Source of the DNA: an uncultured Clostridia bacterium
GTDB lineage: Bacteria > Bacillota > Clostridia > Oscillospirales > Ruminococcaceae
DNA length: 35,735 nt
Direction of reading: 5' to 3'
NCBI GenBank assembly: GCA_944387515.1
Contig: CALXFL010000001.1
Location: 1 to 35,735, forward strand
The position numbers and the translations under genes are program-made. Under the pieces are notes generated by a model. It worked only from the letters and a program-made list of their open reading frames with translations, had not been told where the DNA came from and made no database searches. Below are positions 1,802-25,155 of the stretch, piece by piece. How positions within the stretch are numbered: the stretch's first letter is position 1; every line of letters starts with the position of its first letter.

Positions 1802-3874
1802 ATGAAAAAGAGCAAAGGCTTGTCCTTTATGGGTATGGTGCTTTCTCTGTCCCTGCTGTGCAGTGTGGTACTGACAGCGTTCTATGGGCTGCCGGTTGAG
1901 GCTGCCGATTCCCAGAACCGGCATAATGTGGTAGTGGTCATGGATGCGAGTTATTCCATGGAAGACAGTGACGCAGACCGGCTTCGGATGGATGCTGTGG
2001 AACAGTTTATGGGACTGCTCACAGAGGAAGGAAACGTGGTAGGCGGTATCATTTTTGGCGGATATGCCGCTGAATCCCTGCCCCCGGTAGCCATCGACAG
2101 CCAGGAAGACAAGGATGCGGTCAATCAGTTTTTTTATAACAGCGGCTTTGTCAGCTATACCAATATCGGTGCTGGCCTGACTGCTGCTGAGGAAATGCTG
2201 GCTGAGGGAGGAGATCCTTCTCTGCCGTCGGTCATCATTCTCCTGAGTGACGGCAACACCGCCATGGAAACCGATGAAGCCCTGGAGGAAGCGCTGAATC
2301 TGAAAGCTGAAGCCATCCAGACTGCCCGGGACAATGGTACAGAAATCTATACCGTCTGTCTCAATGTGGACGGCAGCGCTGATGTCACCGAAATGCAGCA
2401 GATTTCCTCTGCTACCGGCGGCGTCTTTCAGGAGGTTGCCCGTCCCGAGGACCTGAAGGACGTGCTCAGCACCTTCTACACCCTGATTTATGGCACTTCC
2501 ACCATTCCGTTGGTGGAGGATGTCTTCCCTGAAAGCGGCCGTATTGAGACGCCCTTCCAGGTACCGGGTATCGGTGTAGAAGAGGTCAACATCGTCATCA
2601 ATGGACAGACGACCTCCATTACCCCCATTCGGCCCGATGGCACGCCCTGCGATACCGGCCTTCAGGTAACCAGCGGCCGCAGCTTTTCCCTGGTAAAAAT
2701 CCTGGATGTGGAGCCGGGAGACTGGACGCTGGTGACGACTGGCGTCCCCGGTGATGAGATCCGGGTGAATATGGTTTACAACACCAATCTGTCTGTGCTG
2801 ACTCAGGCAGATCCTGCTGAATCTCAGCTTCCTCCGGACACCCAGCTCACTGTAAAGGCGCAGCTGGCTTCAGGTGACGAGGTTGCTTCCACTGACCGGC
2901 AGTATACCGGCTACACTGCCCAGCTGGAACTGCTCAGCGGCGGACAGGTGGTCTCCACCCATACCATGCCGGTTCAGAACGGCGGCTTTTCTGTCTCAGT
3001 TCCGCTGAGCGAGGGCGTTTATCAGTATCAGGTGCGGGTAACTGGCTATTATCTGGAGCGGGTCAGCGATCCGGTATCTCTGACCGTTTCTGCTGCTGCC
3101 GAACCTCCTGTCAGCAGTGTTTCTGCTCCTGAAGAACGGGTGGAAAAGGTGGTTAATCTGTGGCCCTTCAAGGGAGGACTGCTGACACTGGACCTGAAGG
3201 AGCTGTTTGTGGCAGAGGAGACTCCTCAGATTTCCATTCTCTCCACCTCCTTCCTGGAGGGAAAGGACTACCGGCTGGAAGGCACCCTTCTGACCCAGGA
3301 CGGCTTCAGCCTTTCCAAAGGTTCCTATACCATTGAAGCCGTTTCGTCCACCGGTCAGACTGCTCAGGTGGAGCTGGTGGTACTCACCCGAAATATTGGT
3401 CTGTTGACCCTGCTGGGACTGGGTATTATTGCGCTGCTGGTGGCAGCCGGAATGGGTGTAGGACTTTATCTGGCCTTGACCAAACGGTTTTACGGCACCA
3501 TTCAGGTCACCTCCATGGCGGACGGCGCCACCAAAACGGATTCCCGTTCTCCTGCCCGGGGCCGCTGCCGTCTCAGTCAGTTTGACCTGCTGCAGACCGG
3601 TTTCCACTATGGAAAGTGTTACTTCCAGGCCACTGGCCAGCGGCATATCTTCCTCATAACCGATCAGCCGGTATCCAGTGGCGGCGTGATTTCCAAAAAG
3701 GTGCGGATCGAGAGCGGCCAGCAGACTGCGGTTACCCTACCGAACCAGGATGGAAAGATGCTCTCCATTTTGTTTGTCAGCCGTAAGGCGGCTTCCGCTG
3801 CCAGCATCAAGGCACCGAAGGCTCCCAAGGTGAAACCGCCCAAGCCTCCGAAACCCCCTAAAATTCGTCGGTAA
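1802..3874 (+). CDS. Membrane-anchored von Willebrand factor A (vWA) domain protein: signal/anchor, extracytoplasmic vWA, beta-rich repeats, TM helix, cytoplasmic tail
   Basis: ATG at 1802 follows RBS AAAGGAG (1788-1794); the longer ORF from 1712 has no RBS. Hydrophobic N-terminal leader MKKSKGLSFMGMVLSLSLLCSVVL. MIDAS motif DxSxS in VVVMDASYSMEDSD, plus LLSDGNT. TM segment IGLLTLLGLGIIALLVAAGMGVGLYLAL, then a ~125-aa tail ending KAPKAPKVKPPKPPKPPKIRR. Confidence 0.85.
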   Translation: MKKSKGLSFMGMVLSLSLLCSVVLTAFYGLPVEAADSQNRHNVVVVMDASYSMEDSDADRLRMDAVEQFMGLLTEEGNVVGGIIFGGYAAESLPPVAIDSQEDKDAVNQFFYNSGFVSYTNIGAGLTAAEEMLAEGGDPSLPSVIILLSDGNTAMETDEALEEALNLKAEAIQTARDNGTEIYTVCLNVDGSADVTEMQQISSATGGVFQEVARPEDLKDVLSTFYTLIYGTSTIPLVEDVFPESGRIETPFQVPGIGVEEVNIVINGQTTSITPIRPDGTPCDTGLQVTSGRSFSLVKILDVEPGDWTLVTTGVPGDEIRVNMVYNTNLSVLTQADPAESQLPPDTQLTVKAQLASGDEVASTDRQYTGYTAQLELLSGGQVVSTHTMPVQNGGFSVSVPLSEGVYQYQVRVTGYYLERVSDPVSLTVSAAAEPPVSSVSAPEERVEKVVNLWPFKGGLLTLDLKELFVAEETPQISILSTSFLEGKDYRLEGTLLTQDGFSLSKGSYTIEAVSSTGQTAQVELVVLTRNIGLLTLLGLGIIALLVAAGMGVGLYLALTKRFYGTIQVTSMADGATKTDSRSPARGRCRLSQFDLLQTGFHYGKCYFQATGQRHIFLITDQPVSSGGVISKKVRIESGQQTAVTLPNQDGKMLSILFVSRKAASAASIKAPKAPKVKPPKPPKPPKIRR

Positions 3875-3881
3875 CAGCAGA

Positions 3882-3912
3882 AAAACCTCCCGGTTTCGGG
3901 AGGTTTTTGCTT
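3882..3912 (+). terminator. Intrinsic terminator after the vWA gene
   Basis: Stem AAAACCTCCCG (3882-3892) / CGGGAGGTTTT (3897-3907), loop GTTT, followed by TGCTT. Confidence 0.8.
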
Positions 3913-4026
3913 CCTCTGAAACGCTACTCGGTAAACCATCCATGCGAAAAAATCCCCCTTTCTTTGTTAAACAATACAACAGATCAATTTTGGGATACTC
4001 CCTTTGCCTGGAAAGGATGACAATGT

Positions 4027-4755
4027 ATGATGACTGAAAAGAATCAGGCCTTATTGGAAGAAACACTTCAGAAATCCGGTGTGGAAGCGGATCATACCCA
4101 GCTGGTATTGGGGATGGGGGGCGCCGGCATCCGGCTGGCAGAAGAGCTGGCAGAGGCGCTGGGCCGCATGGTTCAGCAGCCGGTGACGGTCAGCGCAATG
4201 GACAGCGACAGCTGCGCTGTCCAGCCGGGAAGAAATGTCTTCCTGCTGAAGGGCACCCTGCCTGGCGGTATTACCGGAGCAGGCGCCGCTGGTGACCGGC
4301 GGCTGGCTCATCTCTGGATGATGGAGCAGTTGGAAGCCCTTACCCGCTGGATCACCCCTCTGATGCAGCTACAAAAGCCGTTGGACATCTGGCTGACAGC
4401 TGGCATGGGAGGTGGTACCGGCTCAGGCTGTCTGTTGTCCATGGCCTATCTGGTGCGCCATGTCACCGCTGACATGGCGGGTGTGACCCTCCGATGCTGT
4501 CTGACGATGCCTGGTCTGACCTCTGGCTGGCCCAATCTGGTGGTGAAGCAGCTGGAGACCAACAGCCGCCGCAGCGTCCAGGAGCTGGCCTACTGTGTCA
4601 ACCTTCCCGCCGCCGACCAGGTGGACCACCAGCTGGATAACCGGCCGCTGCTGGATGGCTGCTGGCTGCGGGATTCGTCCGAAAAATGGCAGCCTGTGGG
4701 CGGCAGCCGGGAAGCCCTGGGAGAACTTCTGGCCCGGACCGACAGCAGCTGCTGA
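4027..4755 (+). CDS. Minimal FtsZ/tubulin-superfamily GTPase domain protein (242 aa), without an FtsZ-like C-terminal domain
   Basis: Phosphate-loop motifs occur in FtsZ order: LVLGMGGAG (G1), MDSD (compare NTD), ITGAGAAGD (compare GLGAGANPEVG), and the tubulin signature TAGMGGGTGSGC (compare FtsZ GMGGGTGTG). It shares ELAYCVNLP with ELDYCMNLP and ELDYCMQLQ of the two giant paralogs. RBS GGAAAGGA at 4010-4017. Confidence 0.8.
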   Translation: MMTEKNQALLEETLQKSGVEADHTQLVLGMGGAGIRLAEELAEALGRMVQQPVTVSAMDSDSCAVQPGRNVFLLKGTLPGGITGAGAAGDRRLAHLWMMEQLEALTRWITPLMQLQKPLDIWLTAGMGGGTGSGCLLSMAYLVRHVTADMAGVTLRCCLTMPGLTSGWPNLVVKQLETNSRRSVQELAYCVNLPAADQVDHQLDNRPLLDGCWLRDSSEKWQPVGGSREALGELLARTDSSC

Positions 4756-4817
4756 ACCCGCTCCTCGAGAGAACGCTCTGTACACATTTCAACACATCCG
4801 GGAAAGGAGCCTATTAC

Positions 4818-4889
4818 ATGAATCAGGAAATGATCGAGTCTATGAGTATTCGTGACAGTTCATTTTTTTTACAAACGCGGATTGGATAA
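4818..4889 (+). other. 23-codon ORF with a strong RBS, in frame with the downstream ClpX-like gene and separated from it only by TAA (4887-4889)
   Basis: RBS AAAGGAG (4803-4809) then ATG at 4818. Translation is MNQEMIESMSIRDSSFFLQTRIG followed by stop. The frame continues open after the TAA, and ClpX-like homology starts immediately at 4890. Confidence 0.35.
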
Positions 4890-4970
4890 CTGATCCCCCG
4901 GGATATTGAAAACTGGATACACACCGATGACGGCATCATCGGTCAGGATGCCGCTGTCCGGGCAGCTGCC

Positions 4971-5825
4971 ATGATTGTCTACAACCACTATGAAGGGCGT
5001 CCTTCCGTTTCTCTGTTTGCAGGTCCTACCGGCAGCGGAAAGACCCAGATCTGGCGCGCTCTTCAGCAGGAATATGGCAGCCAGAACATCATCATTCAGG
5101 ATGCCAGTGTCCTGTCAGCCGAAGGCTGGCGGGGCGGCAACAAGATTTCCACCATCTTTCGCAGCCTGAATGCAGACCAGCGGGAGCGGATCATTCTGGT
5201 GTTGGACGAATGTGACAAGCTGCTGGAGCCCATGCACGGCGCCAACGGCACCAATTACAGCGATCTGATGCAGAACCAGCTGCTGCGGATGTGCGATCAT
5301 GATACCCTCTTTTTTGGCAGTGAAGACAGTCAGTCCAGTATGACCATCAGCTGCGCCCGGGTATCAGTGGTGATGCTGGGTGCCTTTGCCCGGCTCACCG
5401 AGCAAAAAAGGAAAGACAGCAGTTGTATAGGCTTTGGGCGTAATCCGGAATTTTCTCAAAACAGTGTCACAGAGCTAACCACGGAAGATCTGATCGATTA
5501 CGGTATGAGAGCCGAGCTGGCCGGATGGCTGGACCGGATCGTTTGTATGGATCTCCTTTCCATCCGAGATCTGGTCCAGATCGGCAAGCAGGAAGTGACC
5601 CGGCTGGAAGAACAGCTGCATATCCGGCTCCGGATCGCACCGGATGTGCTGATTATGCTGGCCCGGGCGGCTGTGGGCAAGGGATTGGGCGCCCGTTGGC
5701 TCAAGGCCCGGCTGGGACAGCTGCTGGACGATCGGCTTTATGACGATCCCGATGCCGACAGCTACGAGATTCTTTATGAGCCGGCTGATGCGGATGCCCG
5801 GCGGCAGGCTTGCTGTATGGACTGA
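4971..5825 (+). CDS. ClpX-like AAA+ ATPase without a zinc-binding N-domain; homology extends upstream to 4890, so the true 5' end is unresolved
   Basis: Walker A GPTGSGKT and Walker B ILVLDECDK. Pore-loop-like AEGWRGG (compare ClpX AGYVGED). CIGFGRN (compare the ClpX GIGFGAT IGF loop). EDLIDYGMRAELAGWLDRIV (compare EDLIKFGLIPEFIGRLPVV). GLGARWLK (compare TGARGLR). Codons 4890-4970 encode ...DDGIIGQDAAVRAAAMIVYNHY, matching ClpX [20 protein letters not shown], but contain no in-frame ATG, GTG or TTG. Confidence 0.8.
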   Translation: MIVYNHYEGRPSVSLFAGPTGSGKTQIWRALQQEYGSQNIIIQDASVLSAEGWRGGNKISTIFRSLNADQRERIILVLDECDKLLEPMHGANGTNYSDLMQNQLLRMCDHDTLFFGSEDSQSSMTISCARVSVVMLGAFARLTEQKRKDSSCIGFGRNPEFSQNSVTELTTEDLIDYGMRAELAGWLDRIVCMDLLSIRDLVQIGKQEVTRLEEQLHIRLRIAPDVLIMLARAAVGKGLGARWLKARLGQLLDDRLYDDPDADSYEILYEPADADARRQACCMD

Positions 5826-5856
5826 TTTTTGGATTTTCAGGAAAGGAGCAAAGAAA

Positions 5857-8289
5857 ATGGACGGATATGACGCATTGCGCCTGACAAAGGGAGGCGGTCT
5901 CACCGCCGGAACCATGAAACCAGCGGAGGATGGATTGCATCTGTTCCTTGGACTGGGCGGCACCGGCCTCGAGTGTCTGCGCACCCTGAAGACTCGGGCC
6001 CGGGAATGGCTGGCTTTGTCAGAACTGGCAGAAGCTCCTTTTTCTCTGTTTGGAATCGATACCAACGATTACAGCAGAACAACAGGTGAATTCCTGTTGC
6101 CCCTGGAAGAGCAAGAGTTTCTCTGGCTTCGTTATCCCGGCAATTTGGGGCCTCACCTGCGTGACAGGACGGATCTCGCCTGGCTGCAGTGGAATGAGAT
6201 TCCCGATCTGGAGACTGGCAGGCCTGTTTGCCGGCAGCATAGCCGCTTTTTTCTGATGGAACATTGGCAGGAGCTGTCTGACCGCCTTCTGGATCAGTTG
6301 CAGAAGCTTCGAAGCAGAGCGCCGCAGCTTCCCATTTTTGTCCATGTCATTACCAGTATGAGTGGCCTTGCTGGTTCTGGTTGCTTTCTGGATCTCTGCT
6401 ATCTGCTTCGGAAGCTGGTGGAGATGTATGGAATGGAAAGAGTGTTTCTTTGTGGCTGGTTCTTTTTGCCCGAAACGATTCTCTCCCGAATTCCGAATAG
6501 CGATGTATCCAGTTTCCGGTTTGTCTCCATAAACAGCTATGCTGCTCTTCGGGAGTTGGATTACTGTATGAATCTTCCTGAGAATGGCAGCAGCTTTACC
6601 CAGGTTTATAAAAATGGAATGTCTGTGCCCTGGGACAGACCGCCGGTGGATTTGGCCTGTCTGGTGGGATTGCCTGAGCAGGATCCCTATCGGGGGTATC
6701 GAAAAGCCATGGAAAACCTCATGCAATACCTGATGGGACAACTGCTTTATCCTGGCTTTGCAGGGAGAATTGCCGATTTTCAGCAGAGAGCCGGACAGGC
6801 CTGGCAGAACAGAACAGATGGCAGCCGTCCGGTTTATGGCCTGCTTCAGAGCAATGCTGCCATGGCGCCGTTACGGGAGGTACAGACCAATCTGGCAGCG
6901 CTGCTTTTTGAGAAATGGAACCCTCTGTTGTCTCACCTCCCTGCCAAACAGGACGTGGAACAGCTTATCTGTAGGGCCTTCGGTAGCCAGCATATCGGTG
7001 ATCTTTACCAGACGTTGTATTTCCGGCTTACCGAGGGAGCGGATGACGGCTATATTCCTTATCCTGACAGCTGGAAAGATGTTCGGAAAAACGGCAGCAG
7101 CCATTTTCTCCAGCACTACAAAGATCAGACTGCCAACAAGCTGAGCCGGATCACCAGAAATCAGGAGAGCCTGCTGGATCCTGGCAATCCGGATTCCCTC
7201 ATCGCCAGAATCTGTCATCAGCTGGACAATGCCGTCATGGATCTGGACCAGGGCCCTGAGTACGTCTGGCAGACTTTGGAGATATGTCATGGTTACAATC
7301 TGCTGACTGTTGTGGACCGCCTGATTCTGGAGAATACCGAACGGCAGAGCCAGAACGCCGCCCAGCATAACCTCCGTCACATGGAGTATGAAAAGGCCAG
7401 ATCTGTCTTTGACGGTGCCACCGGCCTTTTCTCCCTTCCCAGCAAAGCGTTTGCAGAATATGAGTTTTTCCTGCGTGCGCTGGAGTGGCACGCTTACTGT
7501 ATGGGCGCCTATGAGGTCATGAACAGGCTGCTTTCACATTTCAGAAGCCAGTTGATGGAAGAAGGGGAACGTTACAGAAAACTGTCCAGAATGACGGAAC
7601 AGCTGAGGAAAACCTTTGAAGAGAACCGGCTTCTGCTGCGCTGCATCAACCCCAGGTATCTGCTGCCTGCTCAGTGGCATGTGATGGATCAGCTGTGTCC
7701 GCAGCTGGAGCAGGCGGTGGAGCAGGCAGACCAAAAGAAACTGTGGCAAACGTTCATCGCAGGGCTGATGTCAAGGGATACCAGCTGTCCAGACAGCGTG
7801 TTTCAATGGGTAATTACCTGTATACAGGAATCTTTTCCGACATTTTTCAGTCAGGGCTTTGCTTCCTGGCTGTACCCGCTGTGCAGCGCATCGCCTGACG
7901 GACCGCTGTCTGTTGTTTCACTGGCGAATGTCTGCAGTCTGGATGAAAGACCATTTCAAAGACAGCAGTATATGGGGTGTCACCTTTACGAGGAGCCTTT
8001 CAACGACTGGCGGAAGCTGCCGCCTCTTACGCCCCTCAGCAGGTTGTCTGGCGATATGAAGAAATTGCTGGAAGAAGAGATCCGGCGGGTGACCGAGCTT
8101 TTTCAGGAGGGGAGAAGCCAGGGCATCATCCAGCCGGACGGCCGTTTGACCGGTACCCGTACGATACTGGATGGCAGAGGTGTACCTGAAGCGCAGGAGC
8201 AGATCCTGCTGGACAGTTTCTGGCAGGCGCCGGCTTTGCAGCAATGGGTAGAGGAAGAACTCCAAATAAGAGACAAACGGGCTGATTAA
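5857..8289 (+). CDS. Giant tubulin-like (Tubulin_2/FtsZ-like style) protein A, 810 aa, degenerate nucleotide-binding signature
   Basis: RBS GAAAGGAG (5841-5848) then ATG at 5857. G1 is LFLGLGGTG. The signature position reads ITSMSGLAGSGCF instead of GGTGSG, and the GAG loop is replaced by ETGRPVCRQ. A long alpha-helical remainder is paralogous to protein B, for example DDGYIPYPDSWKDVRKNGSSHFLQHYKDQTANKL versus DDGYTPYPDGWKYVRENGNSRFVQHYTDQTANKL. Confidence 0.85.
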   Translation: MDGYDALRLTKGGGLTAGTMKPAEDGLHLFLGLGGTGLECLRTLKTRAREWLALSELAEAPFSLFGIDTNDYSRTTGEFLLPLEEQEFLWLRYPGNLGPHLRDRTDLAWLQWNEIPDLETGRPVCRQHSRFFLMEHWQELSDRLLDQLQKLRSRAPQLPIFVHVITSMSGLAGSGCFLDLCYLLRKLVEMYGMERVFLCGWFFLPETILSRIPNSDVSSFRFVSINSYAALRELDYCMNLPENGSSFTQVYKNGMSVPWDRPPVDLACLVGLPEQDPYRGYRKAMENLMQYLMGQLLYPGFAGRIADFQQRAGQAWQNRTDGSRPVYGLLQSNAAMAPLREVQTNLAALLFEKWNPLLSHLPAKQDVEQLICRAFGSQHIGDLYQTLYFRLTEGADDGYIPYPDSWKDVRKNGSSHFLQHYKDQTANKLSRITRNQESLLDPGNPDSLIARICHQLDNAVMDLDQGPEYVWQTLEICHGYNLLTVVDRLILENTERQSQNAAQHNLRHMEYEKARSVFDGATGLFSLPSKAFAEYEFFLRALEWHAYCMGAYEVMNRLLSHFRSQLMEEGERYRKLSRMTEQLRKTFEENRLLLRCINPRYLLPAQWHVMDQLCPQLEQAVEQADQKKLWQTFIAGLMSRDTSCPDSVFQWVITCIQESFPTFFSQGFASWLYPLCSASPDGPLSVVSLANVCSLDERPFQRQQYMGCHLYEEPFNDWRKLPPLTPLSRLSGDMKKLLEEEIRRVTELFQEGRSQGIIQPDGRLTGTRTILDGRGVPEAQEQILLDSFWQAPALQQWVEEELQIRDKRAD

Positions 8290-12297: not shown

Positions 12298-12300
12298 GGA

Positions 12301-12330
12301 AACAGGGGCTGTATTGCAGCCCCTGTTTCT
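12301..12330 (+). terminator. GC-rich hairpin with a weak U-tract between gene B and the next gene (possible partial terminator or attenuator inside the operon)
   Basis: Stem AACAGGGGCTG (12301-12311) / CAGCCCCTGTT (12317-12327), loop TATTG, followed by TCTGGCTTGTTCTGG. Confidence 0.4.
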
Positions 12331-12364
12331 GGCTTGTTCTGGATAGTGGGGAAGGAGAAGGAAA

Positions 12365-14236: not shown

Positions 14237-14876
14237 ATACGATGAAAAGAGATTCGCCACAGCTCTCCGTCAGGACAGTGTCAACGGACACCTGAAATGG
14301 GATTCGGCAGCGGGACAGAGTGTGATGGTGTTTCGTTCTCCCTACGGAGAGGATCTGCTGTCCCAGATGGAGACGCTTTGTGCGGCAATGACCGGAAAGC
14401 CCCTGCCGGAGGGTTGTTTTCAGCCGGTGACACCGGAGATTCAGGTCCGGTATCTGACAGCGGTGGATAAGGCCCGATCCCAGGGTTGCCCCCTTCAGGG
14501 GGAGGGATACCGGTATACCGTCATCAGCTGTCTGGCTGATGGAGAATGCTGCCGGCTCTTTGCTCCTCAGCAGAACGTTATGAACCGTCCCTTTTGCGAT
14601 GTGCCGGTTACCATTCAGGCTTCGGTAGAGCCGGTGATGGCTGGCGGTGGGCCTTTCCGCCGCCTGCGCCTGTGGGGTAGGAGACAGGAGTTCTCCGGCT
14701 TCTACCATATTTCCTTTAAGATGGACCATCCCGACGATTATCCCAATGGTGGCATATCGGTCTGCTGCGGCGAAATGACCTTTCCGGTGACCAAGGAGAT
14801 GGTTCGGGAGGGCTTTTGTCTGCCAGCTTCGGAGAAACCCCGGCTGTTGTTCCGTGACGGCTTACAGATCAAATAA
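14217..14876 (+). CDS. Hypothetical protein (~219 aa), Cys-rich, translationally coupled to the upstream gene
   Basis: AGGAGG (14202-14207) lies 9 nt before ATG 14217; the alternative ATG at 14211 is only 3 nt away. The gene overlaps the upstream stop (14234-14236). No family recognised. Confidence 0.7.
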   Translation: MTYQYCEYDEKRFATALRQDSVNGHLKWDSAAGQSVMVFRSPYGEDLLSQMETLCAAMTGKPLPEGCFQPVTPEIQVRYLTAVDKARSQGCPLQGEGYRYTVISCLADGECCRLFAPQQNVMNRPFCDVPVTIQASVEPVMAGGGPFRRLRLWGRRQEFSGFYHISFKMDHPDDYPNGGISVCCGEMTFPVTKEMVREGFCLPASEKPRLLFRDGLQIK

Positions 14877-14890
14877 AGGAGCGTTTTACC

Positions 14891-16456
14891 GTGAAAAATC
14901 TTATCTGCCCCTATTGTTTTGAACCTTTTACGGATGAAGAGGTGCATTTTCGTTCTGAATATGTGAGCCCCGATGAGTTCCCCTTCCCGGAAGGATATGA
15001 CGACATTCAGGATTTCCGCACCCGTTATCGGGGCAGCGACCGGGATCAGCTGCTGGAGGCCTACGATGTCTGGGAGGTCTTCCGGCCTGCCATCTCTCCC
15101 AAGTATGAGAAGTTCTGGGCTGGATTCAGCGAAAAAAAGGATCAGTTCAAGACTACCGAAAAGGAACCGGCTGCCAAGTACTTTGGCGTTGAGCCCTATA
15201 AGCGTCCTGTATTGGATCCCGGCAGCCCCGTCCATCAGAAGTTCCTCCGTCCCCAGAAGGATGGATTCTTCATTCGGGACGAGAATGGCATGGTTTCCCA
15301 GATTCAGCTGAAGACGGGAGAGAAGTGCAACCGCCGGGTCTGCCCTCATTGTCACAATCCTTTGCCGGATGGCTATGGCGCCCATCGGGTGCGGTTTGTA
15401 TCGGTCATCGGCATCACCGGTGCAGGCAAGACAGTCTATTTTTCCCAGCTGCTGAAGCGGATGGATAAGTATGCTTTTGCCATTGGCATGTCATCTACCA
15501 CCACCACTGCCAGTGTTCAGAACTTCCTGGAACAGAATGGGGTAGAAAAGCAGAAGCCGCTGCCCACCTCCACGCCGCTGCGGGAAATGCAGCAGCCTCT
15601 TTTCTACGACATGACCTATTCGGTCAGCTCTACCCACAAAGAAACCGAGACACTGGTTCTCTACGATGTGCCGGGCGAGGTCTTTGACCCCAAAAAGATG
15701 GCACTGCTTCCGCTCTATGCGCCCTATATCCAGCACGCAGATGGATTGATTCTGCTCATCAGCCCCGATCAGTTTGAGGTGGTGGCACAGCTTCACGAGG
15801 AAACCCGTCAGCTGAGTGACGCACAGACCGCTTTGCAGGCTATTCACAGCACCGTGGTGGGCGGCGGTACAGAAAAATGCACCCGGCCGCTGGCCATCTG
15901 TGTGGCTCAGGCGGACCAGCCCAGAATCCAGGCGGTGCTCAGCCCCTCCCTCCGGGATAAGCTGCTGAGCGATGTTCGCAGCATCACTGGAAGGGATGGC
16001 CGGCCGGCGCCCTTCTTCAACGGCAACGACTATAACCTGCTTTATACGGAGCTGCAGGACTTTATTCTGAACGCAGATCCAGTTCTGGACAACACCGCCC
16101 ATACCAACTACCTTCATTACAGCTATTTCGCCTTTACTGCTTTGGGCTGTGAGGTGAAGCGCAACGAGGAACAGGGCTTTGATTACCCCGTAGGGCCCGT
16201 TCTGCCCAAGCGGATTGAGGAGCCGCTTTACTGGCTTCTTTACAAGCTGGGGTACATGGGCACTCAGGGGATTCCTCTTTCTGATCCACTCTGCTGTCCC
16301 AACTGCCACAGCTATGAGGGACCGGATCCATTGCCCGAGGATCACCAGTATGTGGAGGGAAGAAGATGGTTCTTCTTTCCCCATAAGATACCTGCCACCC
16401 ATATCTGTCATAAATGCGGACATCATTGGGTGCAGGAGGAAGGAGGACAGGGATGA
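14891..16456 (+). CDS. TRAFAC-type P-loop GTPase flanked by zinc ribbons
   Basis: GTG start at 14891 after RBS AAAGGAG. N-terminal CPYC...CPHC and C-terminal CPNC...CHKC Cys pairs. G1 GITGAGKT, G3 LYDVPGE, G4-like VAQAD (compare the septin-type AKAD). Confidence 0.85.
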   Translation: MKNLICPYCFEPFTDEEVHFRSEYVSPDEFPFPEGYDDIQDFRTRYRGSDRDQLLEAYDVWEVFRPAISPKYEKFWAGFSEKKDQFKTTEKEPAAKYFGVEPYKRPVLDPGSPVHQKFLRPQKDGFFIRDENGMVSQIQLKTGEKCNRRVCPHCHNPLPDGYGAHRVRFVSVIGITGAGKTVYFSQLLKRMDKYAFAIGMSSTTTTASVQNFLEQNGVEKQKPLPTSTPLREMQQPLFYDMTYSVSSTHKETETLVLYDVPGEVFDPKKMALLPLYAPYIQHADGLILLISPDQFEVVAQLHEETRQLSDAQTALQAIHSTVVGGGTEKCTRPLAICVAQADQPRIQAVLSPSLRDKLLSDVRSITGRDGRPAPFFNGNDYNLLYTELQDFILNADPVLDNTAHTNYLHYSYFAFTALGCEVKRNEEQGFDYPVGPVLPKRIEEPLYWLLYKLGYMGTQGIPLSDPLCCPNCHSYEGPDPLPEDHQYVEGRRWFFFPHKIPATHICHKCGHHWVQEEGGQG

Positions 16457-19400
16457 CCAGCAAGTATTACCGCTGCTGTTATACCAACGACACCTGGCAG
16501 CAGGACGGCCGCCTGGCTTCGGGCTGGCGGACAGTGGCTGCCTCTCCTGATTTGCCCCAGCAGGCCCGGGATACCTGTGGTTGGATGCAGAGCAGCGTGG
16601 TGCCCACCCGTCCGGTGAATCTGGACGAGGACGGCAATCCTCTGAATCTGCTGGAGATGGCCGGAGACGGTCAGTTTTTCTACCTGATTCGCACCCAGTA
16701 CGGCCTTCAGGACCGGGAGGGACGGGCCAACATCTTTTCCCATGGCTACATCTTTCCGGCAGAGTCCTCTCTGATGGAGAATCCTGCCGTCCTGTTGACT
16801 GCTGCCGGCCGGGAAAATTTTGGTCAGAGCATCGCAGAGGCAGAGGCCAAAACACCCAATTTTACCGGCAGCCTGCCCGCTCTGGCGGAGGCCCGGATGC
16901 GTTGTGGACTGGATGAAAAGCGTTACCTGACCCTTATTCGCTGTGTCTACCTTCAGATGACCCAGCGTCAGGCACTTTGGCCCCTTTATATCCAATGCCG
17001 GGACGAGGAGGAAATGAAGGCGCTGCTCTGCTGCATTTATGCAGCGCTTCCCCGGTATCTTCGGGGAAGACTTTACGTTTCCTCTGCTGAAATGGAAAAA
17101 AGAGGGCGCAACCTGATTTTCGTCCGGTCCGTAGCAGAGAAGAATCACTGGCTCATTCCCGCTACCGGAGAAAATGACCTGCTCACGCCCCGTGTCATTC
17201 AGCGGCTGGAACGGCTGGAATTTGTGGATTATCCGGTAATCTGCCAGCAGGATCAGGAACGGGCGGATTACTTTGACCGGCTGGAAGCGGAAGCAGACCG
17301 GCTCACTGTGGGGCTGGCTGCTCTTGCGCCCAACGATTCCCGGCAGGAGATGGTGCATAAGATTGCGCATCAGATTATCTGTGATGGGAATGCCCGTACC
17401 GGTGAGGAACTGGAGATCCGGTTGGCGGATGCCCTGCGGGCACCCCAGACCGACCGTCTGGACCTGTACCTGGCCGGGCTCCTGAAGCAGTACAGCGGTC
17501 TGGGGCTCTTCCTGACCCCGGAGGCGGAGGAGGAGCTGGCGGCCAGAGTACAGAATACCCGGCTGCATATGCTTGTTGATCAGATGGATGCCTATGACCG
17601 CCGCCGGCTGCTGACTCTTTCTCCCGAAGAAGGCGCCAAAGTTCTGGCTCTGCGGGATGAAGCAGCTGTGGAAAAGCTCCGGCCTTTGCTGCTGGCTGAT
17701 GCCCGGGGAACCGAGATCTTAGACCAGTATGAAGCAAATGCGTTGGGAGATTCGCCTGACTGGAAAACACTCTGGAGAGGTGTTCAGACAGTTTCCACGG
17801 TACCCCTTCCAGTAACCCGGGCACGGATTGAGGCCCTGGCCTGGCAGCGTTACGAGAAAGAGCTGGCGCCTGGCACCGCCCGTCAGACCTTTGAGGACTA
17901 TATGGCGCTGGTGTCCCGGTTGAATCCTGATACTGCTGCCCAGCTGGGGGACCGGGCCAGACTGCGGTATTGGCAGGACTTTTCTCTCACCTATGCCAGC
18001 CCCGAGCATCTGTCCGAGATGAATTTCTTTGTGATGGATGAAGACCGCCGTTGTCAGGTGGCCAGAGCCTTTGCCGCCTTGCCCATTTTCCGGGAGAAAA
18101 AGGGCGTCCGGCAGTTTTTGCGGGCCCTTTGTAGCTTTTATGCCAACTATCGGGCAGACCTGAGCCGGATGGACGGAGAGACCGCCATTGGACCGCTGCG
18201 CCAGCAGATGGAGCAGGCAGCTCAGGAGAACGATCTGCTCAACCGTTATATTGGCCATTGGATGGCACTGGCAGTGCGGCTTTCACCGGAGGAACTGGAC
18301 AGTCTGCTGGAGCTGGTTGAGGCAGCCAGCAAAGGGGAGACAGCCTCCTTTATCCGCAATGCGGCTTCTTTGCTGGAGGTGGTAAACCGTCAGGCCAGCG
18401 GAGAGATCACCTGGCTCAGAGGGCTTTTAAGCCGTCTCTGGCAGCAGCAGGAGCGCACAGGGGATGCAGTGCCGCTGGATGTCTGGCTTTCTCTGGCAGT
18501 TCCGGGAGAAAATCCCTTTCTGTCTCTGGCAAGCCTTCAACCCCGGGTATTGGAGCTGCCTCCAAAAGAGGTGGCAGCGGCCAGCCGGCTGCTCTTCCTT
18601 CCTCAGATTCGCCAGTATGCAGAGGAATACCAGCGTGGGGGAGAGCTTTCCCGCACTGTTAAACAGTGGATGAACACGGTACGGCAGATGGAAAAGAAGG
18701 GACTGGCGCCTGCTGTTTTGGACGAGGAGCCCAAAATGCCGCCTGTTCATGAAGTTGATTCCAGCCGGGGACAGCAGGACCGTTTCAGTAGTGTGCTGGA
18801 AATTCTCCGTCATCAGGAACCGGCGGAAAAATCCGGTGTGGATACAGGAGACAGAGCAGGAAGTGCCTTTGAGCCGTCTTCCCGCCAGGAACCTGCGGCC
18901 AAATCCAGCTTTGAGGGGCAGGACAGTCTGGACAGCGTGTTTGAACTGCTGCGCCGCCGTTCGGAAGAGAGCAAGGCGGTGCCGGCCCAGCCGCCGGAAC
19001 CTTCTCCGGCTTTGGAAGAACCTGCCGGACAGGACGGGCAAAAGGATGAATGGGCAAGCCTGTATGCCAGCATGGATCGTTTTCTGGGCAAAGAGGTGCC
19101 CGATTCTGAAACACCTGCGCCTAAACAGGAGCCTGAAAAATCCTGGCAGAGCACTGCTTCGGGCAGGATGACCTCGGGAGCATCAGTACGGCCGCTGGAA
19201 CCGCTCCGGCAGGAGAAGGAAAAGCAGCCGGAACAGGGAAGCTTTGGCAGTTCACCTTCTGACGCCAATTACAGCAGTGGTTTCGCTTCGGAAAAAGGGC
19301 GCAGCGGTGCCACCATTCCGGATGTGCCGCTACAGGGCAGCACGGGAACTGTCCGGTCCGGTGCCTCAGTCCGGCCTCAGGACATTCCCCCTCAGGGAAA

Positions 19401-19704
19401 TACTGACAAACAGGAGCCGTCCCGGGGATTCAGCGGCTATCAGCCCACTCCGCCCCGGTACTTTGACCAGGAGTTTGACACTCTTCGCTCTGGTGCGTCG
19501 GTCCGGCCTTCGGAGACAGCTGGGGTGCATGGAGCAGAGTCTCCCTTGACGGAAAATACGCCGCTTCAGGATCATTCCGGCGGAATCCATTCGGAGCAGC
19601 TGGAAAGAGGCCAGACAGAACCTGCAGACGCACCGTCTCAGGAAGGACCGGCTTCCCAAGTCTCTTCCCTTCTGGACCGGCTCCGGGGATTTTTCAAGAA
19701 ATAG
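16453..19704 (+). CDS. Large GTPase-coupled protein (1083 aa): conserved N-terminal module, helical body, ~330-aa disordered repeat-bearing tail
   Basis: ATG at 16453 overlaps the upstream TGA (ATGA, 16453-16456), preceded by AGGAGGAAGGAGGA. N-terminus is MTSKYYRCCYTNDTWQQDGRLASGWRTVAASPDLP. The tail has three SGASVRP repeats (19174-19194, 19357-19377, 19489-19509) and repeated SV(L/F)E(I/L)LR motifs. Confidence 0.8.
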   Translation: MTSKYYRCCYTNDTWQQDGRLASGWRTVAASPDLPQQARDTCGWMQSSVVPTRPVNLDEDGNPLNLLEMAGDGQFFYLIRTQYGLQDREGRANIFSHGYIFPAESSLMENPAVLLTAAGRENFGQSIAEAEAKTPNFTGSLPALAEARMRCGLDEKRYLTLIRCVYLQMTQRQALWPLYIQCRDEEEMKALLCCIYAALPRYLRGRLYVSSAEMEKRGRNLIFVRSVAEKNHWLIPATGENDLLTPRVIQRLERLEFVDYPVICQQDQERADYFDRLEAEADRLTVGLAALAPNDSRQEMVHKIAHQIICDGNARTGEELEIRLADALRAPQTDRLDLYLAGLLKQYSGLGLFLTPEAEEELAARVQNTRLHMLVDQMDAYDRRRLLTLSPEEGAKVLALRDEAAVEKLRPLLLADARGTEILDQYEANALGDSPDWKTLWRGVQTVSTVPLPVTRARIEALAWQRYEKELAPGTARQTFEDYMALVSRLNPDTAAQLGDRARLRYWQDFSLTYASPEHLSEMNFFVMDEDRRCQVARAFAALPIFREKKGVRQFLRALCSFYANYRADLSRMDGETAIGPLRQQMEQAAQENDLLNRYIGHWMALAVRLSPEELDSLLELVEAASKGETASFIRNAASLLEVVNRQASGEITWLRGLLSRLWQQQERTGDAVPLDVWLSLAVPGENPFLSLASLQPRVLELPPKEVAAASRLLFLPQIRQYAEEYQRGGELSRTVKQWMNTVRQMEKKGLAPAVLDEEPKMPPVHEVDSSRGQQDRFSSVLEILRHQEPAEKSGVDTGDRAGSAFEPSSRQEPAAKSSFEGQDSLDSVFELLRRRSEESKAVPAQPPEPSPALEEPAGQDGQKDEWASLYASMDRFLGKEVPDSETPAPKQEPEKSWQSTASGRMTSGASVRPLEPLRQEKEKQPEQGSFGSSPSDANYSSGFASEKGRSGATIPDVPLQGSTGTVRSGASVRPQDIPPQGNTDKQEPSRGFSGYQPTPPRYFDQEFDTLRSGASVRPSETAGVHGAESPLTENTPLQDHSGGIHSEQLERGQTEPADAPSQEGPASQVSSLLDRLRGFFKK

Positions 19705-19725
19705 GGCTGCAGGAAAGGAGAATCA

Positions 19726-21093
19726 ATGGAACGGCTGAAAGAATGGCTGCCGGCTTTTTCGCCGGCAGGGATCATACTGGCGGCAGTGCTGGCAGCACTG
19801 CTGGTCTGGAGCTTTTATAGCTGGAAGCGGAGGGGCCAGCCTGTCCGGCGGCGGGTCTCCGCACCGGATCCCGGTCCACTGTACTTCAGTGAGCTTTACG
19901 GGGGCCGGATCTATCTTCCTGTGGGTTCCCGCACCGGTGCGCTAGGGGAGCCGAATCGGGCCGGACAGAGTGTGATTTTGCAGGAGCTGACCAGCGGAGA
20001 GCAGTTTTGCCTTCAGCGTCAGGGAAGCCACAGCGGAAAGATGGCCTGGCAGGTGCTCTGTCCGCCTCAGTGGCAGGACATTCTCTGGCCCTGTGATCTG
20101 GTGAGACTTCGCCGCCCGGATCAGAAGAGCGGGTGCACGATTCTCTCTGACCGTTTCTGGGGAGAAGATCCGCCCACACCGGAAGAGCAGCTTCAGCGGA
20201 TGGACCAGGAGGAGCTGGCTCTGGTGATGCCTATGGGCGGCTGTCCTTCCGGACTGACGCCGCTGTCTGGTCTGCTGGCCGGGATGCAGAAGTCGCTGGA
20301 AGCACCCAATTACATCACCCAGCCCCGGATTGCCCGGTTGGCGCTCTCCCTGGCGGAAGTGCTGGCGCGGTTGGAGGAGCGGGGGTACAGCTGTCTGGAC
20401 CTCCATCCTGACCGGCTGCTGGTGACACCGGACGATCGGATCTGGCTGGATTATTCCAGTCTGATCTGTCCGGTGGATCAGCTGGAAGTGGGTGTTCAGC
20501 TGAAGGAAGAGGAATTTCCGCTGGAATTTGCCGAGCCGCTGCTGGGAACCGGCAAGCGGCAACTGGCCGATCTTCACACCGCCCGGTTTTCTCTGGCGGC
20601 ACTGCTCTTTTATCTGCTGTTTGGAGCTTATCCCTATGATGGACGGCTGATGTCCGGTTATGCCGATGGTTCGGTGCAGCAGCACTTTGTCAAATTCAAG
20701 GCCTATCATCAGGCGCCGGTGTTTCTGTTTGATCCGGTGGATGACAGCAACAGGCTCGTCTTTACCGCAAAAAGTGAGCCGCTTAAAGCGGCATGGGAAC
20801 AGACACCTCTGCCAGTGCAGCAGGCCTTTGTAGAGATTTTGGGTACACAGAATGCGCTGCGGGAGCAGCCGGTTCAGAATCTTTCTCCGGCTCAATGGGC
20901 AGAGGTGCTCCGATGGCTGCCAGTGCTCAAGCCATCTGAATCAGCAGAACCAGTCCGTACAGCACCGGCTGATGAAGCAGATATACCGGCAGTGCAAACC
21001 GCCCCACCAGCGACAATGGCCGGATCCCCAGCTGCTTCCACCGCTCCCACTGAGGGAGACGGGTCAGAAGCGGATGGAGAAACCGCCCTGTGA
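19726..21093 (+). CDS. N-terminally membrane-anchored protein kinase-like protein, probable pseudokinase
   Basis: RBS AAAGGAGA then ATG at 19726. TM segment AGIILAAVLAALLVWSFY. Catalytic-loop-like GYSCLDLHPDRLLV (compare HRDLKPENILV, Lys and Asn not conserved). DYS in place of DFG. C-lobe signature FSLAALLFYLLFGAYPYDG. No obvious Gly-rich loop or VAIK. Ala/Pro-rich acidic tail. Confidence 0.75.
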   Translation: MERLKEWLPAFSPAGIILAAVLAALLVWSFYSWKRRGQPVRRRVSAPDPGPLYFSELYGGRIYLPVGSRTGALGEPNRAGQSVILQELTSGEQFCLQRQGSHSGKMAWQVLCPPQWQDILWPCDLVRLRRPDQKSGCTILSDRFWGEDPPTPEEQLQRMDQEELALVMPMGGCPSGLTPLSGLLAGMQKSLEAPNYITQPRIARLALSLAEVLARLEERGYSCLDLHPDRLLVTPDDRIWLDYSSLICPVDQLEVGVQLKEEEFPLEFAEPLLGTGKRQLADLHTARFSLAALLFYLLFGAYPYDGRLMSGYADGSVQQHFVKFKAYHQAPVFLFDPVDDSNRLVFTAKSEPLKAAWEQTPLPVQQAFVEILGTQNALREQPVQNLSPAQWAEVLRWLPVLKPSESAEPVRTAPADEADIPAVQTAPPATMAGSPAASTAPTEGDGSEADGETAL

Positions 21094-25153: not shown

Positions 25154-25155
25154 AA

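Follow-up and report, generated by a model that had tools for sequence, protein, structure and literature searches.

In the window (the whole 35,735-nt stretch of DNA that was analyzed), every long open reading frame (ORF) from 1802 to 21093 was on the + strand. G7 and G8 overlapped (end at 14236 and start at 14217, respectively), the stop codon of the GTPase gene (G9) and the start codon of the GAP1 gene (G10) shared the sequence ATGA at 16453-16456, and a GGAGG-type ribosome-binding site was found 5-10 nt upstream of each gene except the ORF starting at 4971. The motifs GMGGAG/GMGGGTGSG, GLGGTG/SGGTGSG, GLGGTG/SGLAGSG, GAGKT, DVPGE, and AQAD were all found in the sequence. The co-directional layout, the overlaps, and the motifs given in an earlier note on this DNA were therefore confirmed, and the strong ribosome-binding sites that it described were present for all genes but the 4971 ORF. 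Its count of eleven genes was reduced to ten credible ones, because the 141-aa ORF at 8372-8797 was discounted as a degenerate copy of the 5′ part of TubB. The features were as follows.

1802..3874, + strand: G1, with a signal peptide/transmembrane (TM) segment, an extracellular vWA domain, a beta-rich ectodomain, one TM segment, and a cytoplasmic tail
4027..4755, + strand: G2, 242-aa mini tubulin-like protein (Tubulin_2, 1.7e-12; Tubulin, 2.3e-6)
4819..5825, + strand: G3, ClpX-like AAA+ protein, a 335-aa gene of which a 284-aa ORF from 4971 remains here
5857..8289, + strand: G4 (TubA), 810 aa, Tubulin_2 paralogue of TubB (1.1e-25)
8263..8850, + strand: degenerate tandem copy of the region upstream of TubB plus its first ~85 codons (direct repeat families D5, D6, D8, and D10)
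8851..12297, + strand: G6 (TubB), 1148 aa, core Tubulin_2 protein (Pfam, 4.6e-57)
12298..12330, + strand: candidate hairpin with a 15-bp stem in the 67-nt gap after TubB (terminator-like scan, consensus match only)
12365..14236, + strand: G7, 623-aa conserved core protein (25/34 evaluable loci)
14217..14876, + strand: G8, 219-aa (~220) conserved core protein (23/34 evaluable loci)
14891..16456, + strand: G9, Zn-ribbon DO-GTPase2 (1.4e-10; bit score 41.6, cut-off 27)
16453..19704, + strand: G10, GAP1 protein whose N-terminal domain is of the N2 type (GAP1-N2, 1.1e-9; bit score 38.8, cut-off 24)
19726..21093, + strand: G11, kinase-fold protein (family profile against PDB kinases; 21/32 evaluable loci)
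21796..22818, + strand: D1, Sel1-repeat protein carrying TM segments at its C-terminus (Sel1, 4.1e-8), conserved module member
22832-25153, + strand: D2, polytopic protein (~12 TM) whose C-terminal region is soluble, tight spacing, GGAGG ribosome-binding site
25156-25944, + strand: D3, polytopic protein, tight spacing, GGAGG ribosome-binding site

A census of 46 genome loci, seeded with TubB only, was used to define the conserved part of this set (42 loci were evaluable for G2 and G3, and 31-34 for each core component). The core was collinear, in the order vWA(TM) protein, TubB, G7 (623 aa), G8 (~220 aa), Zn-ribbon DO-GTPase, GAP1, kinase-like protein, and Sel1/TM protein, and was found in 18-30 of the 31-34 evaluable loci per component, which bore out the expected co-occurrence of core genes beyond the present genome. 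Because the Sel1/TM protein (D1) belongs to this core, the conserved unit does not end at 21093, as had been proposed, but extends to at least 22818; it probably reaches 25944, which would include D2 and D3. All eight core genes in the window were full-length ORFs with strong ribosome-binding sites. Four elements are species-specific additions: TubA, the mini-tubulin (G2), the ClpX-like gene (G3), and an unrelated reverse-strand acyltransferase gene (HGSNAT-type) that separates G11 from D1, overlapping the G11 tail. The hairpin at 12298..12330 could be an internal attenuator or a terminator dividing the locus into two expression units.

Census hosts were Oscillospiraceae, Lachnospiraceae, Streptococcus suis (a single strain record), and Coriobacteriia, and most relatives had one tubulin gene, not two. 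Flanking genes varied among loci (isocitrate dehydrogenase, ABC transporter, kinase, and dynamin-like genes), as would be expected of an accessory module that spreads horizontally. The sampled neighbors were mostly housekeeping rather than defense genes, and an accessory TerD protein was observed in the E. cellulosolvens locus. The locus was chromosomal; it was not found on phages, and plasmids carried only distant Tubulin_2 genes. As anticipated, PADLOC, which has no model for such systems, returned no match, and no toxin-like effector domain, nuclease, or pore effector was detected in the proteins of the locus.

The domain assignments of the earlier note were upheld by profile matches above gathering cut-offs for VWA, Tubulin_2 (three proteins), DO-GTPase2, and GAP1-N2. 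TubB consisted of a tubulin/FtsZ-fold region in its N-terminal ~400 residues, a long helical middle, and a variable C-terminal region. The T1, T4, and ELDYC motifs of the N-terminal region were canonical and intact, and their residues were invariant among TubB homologues, of which more than 1000 were full-length. The tubulin/FtsZ fold was supported by the Tubulin_2 profiles and by Foldseek matches of the AF2 model of TubB (pLDDT 80) to CetZ2 (1.5e-5, TMt 0.50), tubulins, and TubZ. TubA, which starts at 5857, was 39% identical to TubB over 729 residues, with 76-78% nucleotide identity over 6949-7484; its T4 loop was degenerate (SGLAGSG), and it lacked a portion equivalent to the final ~340 residues of TubB. 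Degenerate T4 loops were also frequent in the extra tubulin paralogues of other loci. The duplicate at 8263..8850 contained the spurious 141-aa ORF. Fragment matches to the TubB N-terminus were found in the same-species contig L056, and a sister assembly carried a TubA/TubB chimera.

The T1/T4 loops of G2 were canonical, with QELAYC replacing ELDYC. When 1.84 billion representative proteins were searched, G2 matched itself, one fragment, a repetitive 2,055-aa protein (33 short stretches), and, weakly (E of at least 5.8e-7), long Tubulin_2 proteins. It was present in same-species contigs L055-L058 only and absent from 42 of 42 related evaluable loci. G2 is a species-restricted ORFan, and its earlier reading as a system component was not supported.

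Like ClpX, G3 had the AAA+ module (residues 26-318 aligned with E. coli-type ClpX; 4.7e-17 against PDB ClpX), the pore-1 loop position, and the IGF tripeptide of the IGF loop. Unlike ClpX, it had no N-terminal zinc-binding domain, carried GW(R/K)G (GWRG here) instead of GYVG in the pore loop, and was 5′-truncated in the window. AAA/AAA_2 Pfam matches were obtained, and the NCBIfam ClpX match (1.2e-17, 64 bits) was far below the equivalog cut-off of 359 bits. DNA alignment placed the damage within the first 51 codons (an extra T, TGG changed to TGA, and a lost C); the latter two changes were shared with L055, whereas the 335-aa gene was intact in the same-species L056-L058. No ribosome-binding site was found at 4971, the start of the remaining ORF. 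No counterpart was found in any of 42 evaluable related loci, and none of three sampled homologues had a tubulin-system or GAP1 neighbor: two were in mobile-element contexts (adjoining ArdC, recombinase, RecT, or primase genes), and the third stood alone, with a recombinase at a distance of 6.7 kb. A role for G3 as a dedicated filament remodeler, which the earlier note had suggested, was not supported on these grounds (0/42 related loci, three sampled relatives free of tubulin-system neighbors, and loss of the native start here).

G9 had counterparts in 30/34 evaluable loci. Its CPYC and CPHC motifs were invariant, its Walker A and Walker B motifs were GITGAGKT and DVPGE, and the CxxC pairs, the P-loop, and the Walker B D.PGE were conserved among 26 homologues. 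G10 (28/32 evaluable loci) is predicted to be translationally coupled to G9 via the ATGA. Its C-terminal tail of ~330 residues was polar, with three SGASVRP motifs and 72% polar/disorder-promoting residues (51% in residues 1-750). G1 had a counterpart immediately 5′ of TubB in 28/32 evaluable loci. Its vWA domain (Pfam VWA, 3.5e-13) had an intact MIDAS motif (DASYS), and the TM segment at approximately residues 525-561 was followed by a conserved cytoplasmic tail domain (RGRxKL...YFQATG), which had no PDB match, and by a basic proline-rich C-terminal end. All 29 G1 homologues matched VWA_2, 27 matched VWA, and 13 matched GBD_Hemicentin.

G7 had no Pfam or PDB match, and profile comparisons showed no resemblance to either TubB or vWA; its single-sequence AF2 model (pLDDT 39.8) was too poor for use, and more divergent loci had a gene-sized gap at its position. 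Pfam and PDB searches with G8 were also without match. For G11, no Pfam match for a kinase fold was obtained, and its 24-sequence family profile matched the C-lobes of PDB kinases (MELK, 4.7e-8; Tribbles, 2.8e-5), in agreement with the kinase fold proposed earlier. In the family alignment the HRD-type Asp was mostly retained, the catalytic-loop Asn was replaced by Arg, and neither the Gly-rich loop nor the VAIK motif was seen; G11 is probably a pseudokinase. An N-terminal hydrophobic segment was present in just 2/24 homologues; the TM is lineage-specific, and a function as transmembrane sensor was not supported. The C-terminal extension was not conserved. D1 had a counterpart directly after G11 in 18/31 evaluable loci. 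A gene of 512-571 aa followed D1 in L001 and L003, and in L004, L005, and L011 the ORF following D1, truncated in each case by the edge of the locus, was matched weakly (25-32 bits); D2 and D3 are probable downstream members of the module.

The locus belongs to the tubulin-theme GAP1-N2-type DO-GTPase conflict systems, Firmicutes version, as these are set out in the main text of the paper that predicted them computationally (Kaur, Burroughs, Iyer, and Aravind 2020; PMC7159879). It likewise qualifies as one of the FtsZl1/Tubulin_2-vWA-GTPase-kinase operons described by Makarova and Koonin (2010; PMC2875224), who connected FtsZl1 with vWA, GTPase, and kinase genes. The claim that no described system has this gene set thus falls by the earlier note's own standard, under which a match to a known system would count against it. 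As in the systems of Kaur et al., the Zn-ribbon DO-GTPase has the Walker B Glu and GAP1-N2 follows directly. According to the main text of that paper, the Firmicutes version carries two tubulin plus coiled-coil genes, a membrane vWA protein, a GAP1 whose tail is polar, an FNIII-repeat protein, and a second vWA protein in fusion with YtkA. Found here were two tubulin-domain genes whose C-terminal regions are long and helical, a membrane protein with its vWA domain outside, the polar GAP1 tail, and a Firmicutes host; unlike in that version, there was one vWA gene, YtkA and FNIII domains were not detectable, and the ClpX-like gene and mini-tubulin were added in the present species only. G7, G8, the kinase-like protein, and the Sel1/TM protein, which are conserved here, are not mentioned in that main text. 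Like FtsZl1 operons, the locus combined a Tubulin_2-type GTPase domain lacking FtsZ_C or Tubulin_C Pfam domains, a vWA with intact MIDAS, a fusion of a diverged P-loop GTPase with a Cys-rich module, and kinase-type genes. Unlike them, it had no OmpA-family partner, its tubulin proteins were giant (810-1148 aa) with long helical extensions, and the predicted TubB fold aligned over ~370 columns with CetZ/tubulin, more than the N-terminal GTPase domain alone. TubB shared with TubZ, CetZ, and tubulin the tubulin/FtsZ fold and the T1 (GGTG), T4 (GGTGSG), and acidic T7/H8-like (ELDYC) motifs. It differed from these filament formers in its 10-15% identity, in ~750 extra residues, in a polymerization that is predicted, in its vWA/GTPase/GAP1 operon context (rather than partition or cell shape), and in not being on plasmids or phages. 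No experimental study of the predicted tubulin/GTPase system, and no follow-up paper on it, was found in the literature.

The best explanation, to which we give a probability of roughly 60%, is that the locus belongs to the predicted tubulin/GTPase system, with a sensor, a switch, and a tubulin-like polymer, and most plausibly with a role in conflict. The surface vWA/MIDAS ectodomain protein would bind an envelope or foreign ligand and signal via its conserved cytoplasmic tail. The coupled DO-GTPase-GAP1 pair would act as a GTP-dependent threshold switch that licenses GTP-dependent polymerization of the giant tubulin-like protein beneath the membrane. The kinase-like, Sel1/TM, and polytopic proteins may organize or anchor the polymer, with G7 and G8 as putative adaptors. 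The output would be a membrane-proximal polymer and envelope remodeling or cell arrest, most plausibly in an abortive-infection-like conflict role. This general sensor-switch-filament logic, also present in the earlier note, agrees with the published prediction as given in the main text of Kaur et al. (PMC7159879). Given the mostly housekeeping neighbors and the missing PADLOC model, the conflict role rests on the published inference and on patchy distribution.

The same genes may instead form an envelope-spanning, GTP-gated tubulin-type cytoskeleton with cell-biological tasks (membrane remodeling, vesicle or septum-independent shaping, or cell-cell interaction), which we consider a distinctly less probable reading. 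The long core of ~8 genes, strictly collinear, conserved, and rich in membrane components, is consistent with it, as are the missing effectors and PADLOC match, the neighbors sampled, and the chromosomal location away from phages and, distant Tubulin_2 genes apart, plasmids. Membrane remodeling is also the role argued for FtsZl1 operons by Makarova and Koonin (PMC2875224). However, the system occurs patchily and across phyla (Bacillota and Coriobacteriia, with the single S. suis record), flanks differ per site, paralogues show both expansion and decay (tubulin ORFs that are split, chimeras, and fragment duplications), and accessory genes such as that for TerD vary. Patchy distribution with differing flanks, paralogue expansion with decay, and variable accessory genes are hallmarks of a conflict role in the main text of Kaur et al. 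(PMC7159879).

It is improbable that the copy in the present genome is a decaying or non-functional relic. The disrupted 5′ end of G3, the duplicated TubB 5′ pseudo-fragment (8263-8850), the acyltransferase gene inserted at the G11 tail, and the chimera in the sister assembly would fit such decay, but the damage was limited to lineage-specific additions, the eight core genes were full-length with their ribosome-binding sites, and the catalytic motifs of TubB were intact. An undescribed eleven-gene machine, with a three-tubulin filament and the ClpX-like AAA+ protein as its dedicated remodeler, is largely refuted and the least probable of all. ClpX antagonizes FtsZ polymers, G3 retains a ClpX-type pore loop and IGF loop, and in several same-species assemblies the vWA gene is separated from TubB by the ClpX-like, mini-tubulin, and TubA genes. 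Against this stand the prior description of the system, the lack of G2 and G3 in 42/42 related loci, the ORFan status of G2, the three sampled G3 homologues without tubulin or GAP1 neighbors, and the loss here of the native start and first 51 codons of G3, whose remaining ORF has no ribosome-binding site.

As a member of the predicted tubulin/GTPase system, the locus adds a gut Clostridia representative to a system that had already been predicted, and G2 and G3, the source of its apparent uniqueness, are restricted to the species.

All long ORFs between positions 1802 and 21093 were located on the + strand, and GGAGG-type ribosome-binding sites preceded every gene except the ORF at 4971. The features with assigned coordinates and domains were the following.

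Features of the locus (position, strand, description; values are Pfam E-values)
1802-3874, + strand: G1, membrane vWA protein (VWA, 3.5e-13)
4027-4755, + strand: G2, 242-aa mini tubulin (Tubulin_2, 1.7e-12)
4971-5825, + strand: G3, ClpX-like AAA+ protein (AAA / AAA_2)
5857-8289, + strand: TubA, 810-aa tubulin paralogue (Tubulin_2, 1.1e-25)
8851-12297, + strand: TubB, 1148-aa tubulin paralogue (Tubulin_2, 4.6e-57)
12298-12330: strong hairpin after TubB
14891-16456, + strand: G9, Zn-ribbon DO-GTPase (DO-GTPase2, 1.4e-10; 41.6 bits vs. a cut-off of 27)
16453-19704, + strand: G10, GAP1 protein (GAP1-N2, 1.1e-9; 38.8 bits vs. a cut-off of 24)
20927-21655, - strand: HGSNAT_cat/DUF1624-type acyltransferase (3.1e-36)
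21796-22818, + strand: D1, protein with Sel1 repeat and TM segments

The co-directional layout described in the earlier note was reproduced, as were its two gene overlaps (the start of G8, at 14217, precedes the end of G7, at 14236; the ATGA at 16453-16456 is common to the stop of G9 and the start of G10), and all the motifs that it quoted were found in the translations. The 623-aa and 219-aa core proteins (G7 and G8) and the kinase-like protein (G11) had no match in Pfam. In G9, CPYC and CPHC were invariant and GxxGAGKT and D.PGE conserved among 26 homologues. Separate matches for the GAP1-M and GAP1-C domains were not obtained in G10. Its tail (residues 751-1083) was composed of 72% S/P/E/Q/G/T/K/R/D and 18% hydrophobic residues. 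This polar tail carries the motif SGASVRP three times, at residues 908, 969, and 1013 (window 19174-19494, residues 908-1019), with no tandem repeat in the DNA; the copies may serve as short linear motifs for interaction or modification.

The AlphaFold2 model of TubB (25-sequence alignment, mean pLDDT 80) contained long helices, for example residues 568-636, and its N-terminal ~400 residues matched CetZ2 (E 1.5e-5, TM 0.50 on target), alpha/beta/gamma-tubulins, and TubZ in Foldseek. When the alignment of G11 (24 members) was compared with the PDB, protein-kinase C-lobes were matched (MELK, 4.7e-8; pseudokinase Tribbles, 2.8e-5), with only the C-lobe aligning. APE-like and alphaF-like motifs were kept and the HRD-type and DFG-type Asp were mostly kept. 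G11 is a likely pseudokinase, because Arg stands in the place of the catalytic-loop Asn and neither a Gly-rich loop nor the VAIK Lys is recognizable in the 24 sequences.

The combination of genes corresponds to a system that has already been described. "GTPase-centric systems", as defined by Kaur, Burroughs, Iyer and Aravind (eLife 2020, PMC7159879), are built on a DO-GTPase that often bears Zn ribbons, followed downstream by a GAP1 protein. As described there, the GAP1-N2 type has a TRAFAC-type DO-GTPase with a conserved Walker B Glu and usually N-terminal zinc ribbons, includes a protein whose FNIII repeats evolve rapidly, and has tubulin-domain genes as central members in ~52% of neighborhoods, in Firmicutes and Actinobacteria. 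The Firmicutes tubulin version is described as containing two tubulin genes, each fused to a C-terminal coiled coil, and two vWA proteins, one being a YtkA fusion and the other a membrane protein whose vWA domain is extracellular. The window shares with this description the DO-GTPase with a directly downstream, ATGA-overlapped GAP1-N2 gene, two Tubulin_2 genes with helical C-terminal regions, a membrane protein whose vWA domain lies outside, and the polar tail of G10. No second vWA gene was found in the window; one is present in two of the comparison loci (L014 and L018). No YtkA match was found in the window or among 29 homologues of G1, and no fn3 match was found by sequence-level search in any window protein or among the same homologues, 13 of which matched GBD_Hemicentin; the beta-rich ectodomain of G1 or, instead, G8 could take the role of the published FNIII protein.

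An earlier study (Makarova and Koonin 2010, PMC2875224) had already associated FtsZl1, the present Pfam Tubulin_2, with kinases, with diverged GTPases that carry Cys-rich modules, and with vWA proteins whose MIDAS motif is intact. TubB agrees with that family in its T1/T4 signatures, the absence of a C-terminal FtsZ_C or Tubulin_C domain in Pfam, and the vWA gene upstream. The earlier note was confirmed in its observations and partly supported in its interpretation; its statement that no such system had been described was wrong, because the window matches these published descriptions (the system in Kaur et al. 2020; the FtsZl1-vWA-GTPase-kinase link in Makarova and Koonin 2010). Full-text literature searches returned no experimental follow-up. 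The locus is a further member of a computationally predicted, experimentally uncharacterized system and does not represent a kind of its own. In the main text of Kaur et al., as consulted here, there is no mention of two features presented below, namely four additional core subunits and a pattern of paralogue degeneracy.

TubB had more than 1000 homologues of full length, and scanning one genome per species with TubB yielded 46 loci, all ORFs of which were searched with the window proteins by phmmer. These loci came from Oscillospiraceae, Lachnospiraceae, [Eubacterium] cellulosolvens, Coprococcus, Streptococcus suis YS226, and Coriobacteriia (Atopobiaceae, Olsenella). A single collinear module was present across loci, consisting of vWA, TubB, G7, G8, DO-GTPase, GAP1, G11, and D1; co-occurrence of the core genes therefore extends beyond their own genome. 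Counting only loci with enough flank, the vWA gene was found upstream of TubB in 28/32, G7 in 25/34, G8 in 23/34, the DO-GTPase in 30/34, GAP1 in 28/32 (in the same GTPase-to-GAP1 order), G11 in 21/32, and D1 in 18/31. Loci in which G7 or G8 was missed were the most divergent ones, and a gap of the right size was still present at that position. Because the module reaches D1 (21796-22818), the unit extends past 21093, where the earlier note had ended it. Two tightly spaced genes for polytopic membrane proteins, D2 and D3 (22832-25944), are probable module members; in three loci, D2 weakly matched the gene that comes next there, which is truncated. The acyltransferase gene of the window has been inserted between G11 and D1, neighbors in other loci, and its 3′ end overlaps the nonconserved C-terminal extension of G11 by ~167 nt.

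Flanking genes varied between loci, as expected of an accessory module that moves horizontally. At 13395-14366 of the [Eubacterium] cellulosolvens locus (L009), a SEC-C + TerD protein, a variable accessory component of stress/conflict flavor, follows GAP1 where other loci have the kinase-like and Sel1 genes. A TubZ/PhuZ-like partition role on mobile elements was rejected, because searches with TubB found only distant Tubulin_2 genes among plasmids (Thermus and Allomeiothermus megaplasmids) and none among phages.

Against the PDB, profiles of G7, of G8, and of the tail that G1 extends into the cytoplasm gave nothing better than E = 0.2, and no Pfam, PDB-sequence, or profile-profile match was obtained for any of the three. 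Pfam scans of all G7 and G8 homologues returned scattered single matches only, which were taken as chance. Profile-profile comparison of G7 and G8 with tubulin and vWA domains gave probabilities of <1%, and the idea that either protein is a degenerate form of such a domain was dropped. The homologue search with G7 returned its own cluster only, and its single-sequence AF2 model was unusable (pLDDT 39.8) and was left out of the fold search.

TubA and TubB share 39% amino-acid identity, and one nucleotide stretch is 76-78% identical. The T4 loop of TubA is degenerate (SGLAGSG), and the extra Tubulin_2 paralogues as a group (L014, L018, L047, L003, and TubA of the window) often had a degenerate T4 (SGLAGSG, SGATGAG, SDETGSG, GDLLAAG); the TubB paralogue adjoining G7 always kept GGTG[SA]G. 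This pattern hints at a division of labor between catalytic and noncatalytic tubulin subunits. In a sister assembly of the same species (L055, 4296-7622), a single 1108-aa TubA/TubB chimera replaces the two genes, which could reflect recombination between paralogues or assembly collapse. The segment between TubA and TubB (8263-8850) is a degenerate tandem duplicate of the promoter-proximal region and first ~85 codons of TubB and thereby accounts for a spurious 141-aa ORF (8372-8797).

G2 and G3 were absent from 42/42 evaluable loci and occurred only in metagenome contigs of the same species. Split tubulin ORFs in three loci (L022, L035, and L046) were considered as equivalents of G2 plus TubA and rejected as frameshifted single paralogues. 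Among 1.84 billion representative proteins, G2 retrieved only itself, a fragment, weak matches to long Tubulin_2 proteins, and one repetitive protein of 2,055 aa that aligned in 33 short stretches; by this search, G2 is an ORFan. It keeps GGGTGSG, with QELAYC in place of the family-invariant ELDYC.

The nearest NCBIfam model to G3 was ClpX (1.2e-17; 64 bits vs. an equivalog cut-off of 359 bits). The G3 family shares with ClpX the AAA+ module, the position of the pore loop, and the IGF tripeptide, but has a GW(R/K)G pore loop and no zinc-binding domain, the N-terminal Cys cluster being missing from the intact 335-aa form. Judged by these features, G3 is ClpX-like, not ClpX, and we know of no description of such a family. 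No tubulin or GAP1 neighbor was present in the three contexts of G3 relatives examined (L052, 5539-7994; L054, 9326-12570; L050, 10001-11062). Two of the relatives sit beside mobile-element genes, one adjoining DUF3846/ArdC-N and a serine recombinase and the other amid RecT, FtsK, recombinase, and D5-primase genes. In L050 the gene stands alone, a recombinase lying 6.7 kb off. The family may encode a mobile-element ClpP adaptor or anti-defense unfoldase. Relative to the intact alleles of the same species (L056-L058), the window has, at 4819-4970, one additional T within a T-run, TGG>TGA, and a lost C in a C-run, and the residual ORF at 4971 is the one without a ribosome-binding site. The latter two changes are shared by L055, and they are therefore real polymorphism; on this allele comparison, the 5′ loss of G3 is a segregating pseudogenizing polymorphism, not a sequencing error. 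The locus has additions limited to this species, one of them (G3) damaged.

Two further features lie outside the module. The 1.2-kb gap between a MATE gene and the vWA gene is occupied by four tandem copies of a ~208-nt unit (750-1500; spacings of 210, 209, and 166 nt), each having a strong GC-rich hairpin with a T-run behind it (823-849, 1023-1056, 1231-1266, and 1397-1432). The units, like the rest of the window, had no match in Rfam; they may represent stacked terminators, copies of a small repeated element, or an array of sRNAs. At 31206-31727, a putative Imm-5-like immunity protein (Pfam, 3.4e-14) adjoins a GFO/IDH/MocA oxidoreductase, with no toxin gene nearby.

The components suggest how the module might operate. 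The outside vWA/MIDAS domain of G1 and its beta-sandwich ectodomain would likely be the ligand sensor, with the conserved cytoplasmic tail as the likely transmitter and the translationally coupled DO-GTPase-GAP1 pair as the likely switch. TubB, with intact T1 and T4, an acidic ELDYC, and an extension of ~750 mainly helical residues, would likely form a GTP-dependent polymer. The kinase-like, Sel1/TM, and polytopic proteins would likely be scaffolds or anchors, and the hairpin at 12298-12330 may separate abundant structural genes (vWA and tubulin genes) from regulatory ones.

The output of the module may be defense or conflict, following Kaur et al., or it may be membrane remodeling, which Makarova and Koonin proposed for FtsZl1 operons. 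The patchy cross-phylum distribution and the turnover of paralogues speak for a conflict role; the absence of a toxic effector and the housekeeping neighbors point the other way. For defense-island enrichment, ten upstream neighbors were sampled, most of them housekeeping genes, a sample too small to conclude from. PADLOC-DB v2 gave only marginal matches for G3 and G11 (E ≥ 5e-4) and none for the other eight proteins, so that no component matched a catalogued defense system. The most far-reaching reading, with a probability of about 0.3, is that vWA, TubB, G7, G8, DO-GTPase, GAP1, the pseudokinase, and the Sel1/TM protein, possibly with the polytopic proteins, form an outside-to-inside gated, envelope-spanning immune or abortive-infection machine, in which a giant tubulin-type polymer would be the effector and degenerate-loop paralogues such as TubA would be alpha/beta-like regulatory partners. 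This hypothesis is already published in outline, as a prediction.

DO-GTPase/GAP1 systems are still computational predictions only, and the present analysis sharpens the experimental target to eight collinear core genes, which may have polytopic membrane proteins as further partners. The genes of the window outside this core have been identified, and cultured carriers can be named ([Eubacterium] cellulosolvens LD2006, Coprococcus sp. OM04-5BH, Lachnospiraceae bacterium TWA4, and Streptococcus suis YS226). Within the family, the GTP-binding signature tends to be lost from accessory tubulin paralogues. To our knowledge, bacterial tubulin-superfamily proteins have no demonstrated role beyond cell division, plasmid/phage DNA positioning, and cell shape. 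If the immune or abortive-infection reading is true, this would be the first such bacterial system with a tubulin-superfamily filament as its effector.
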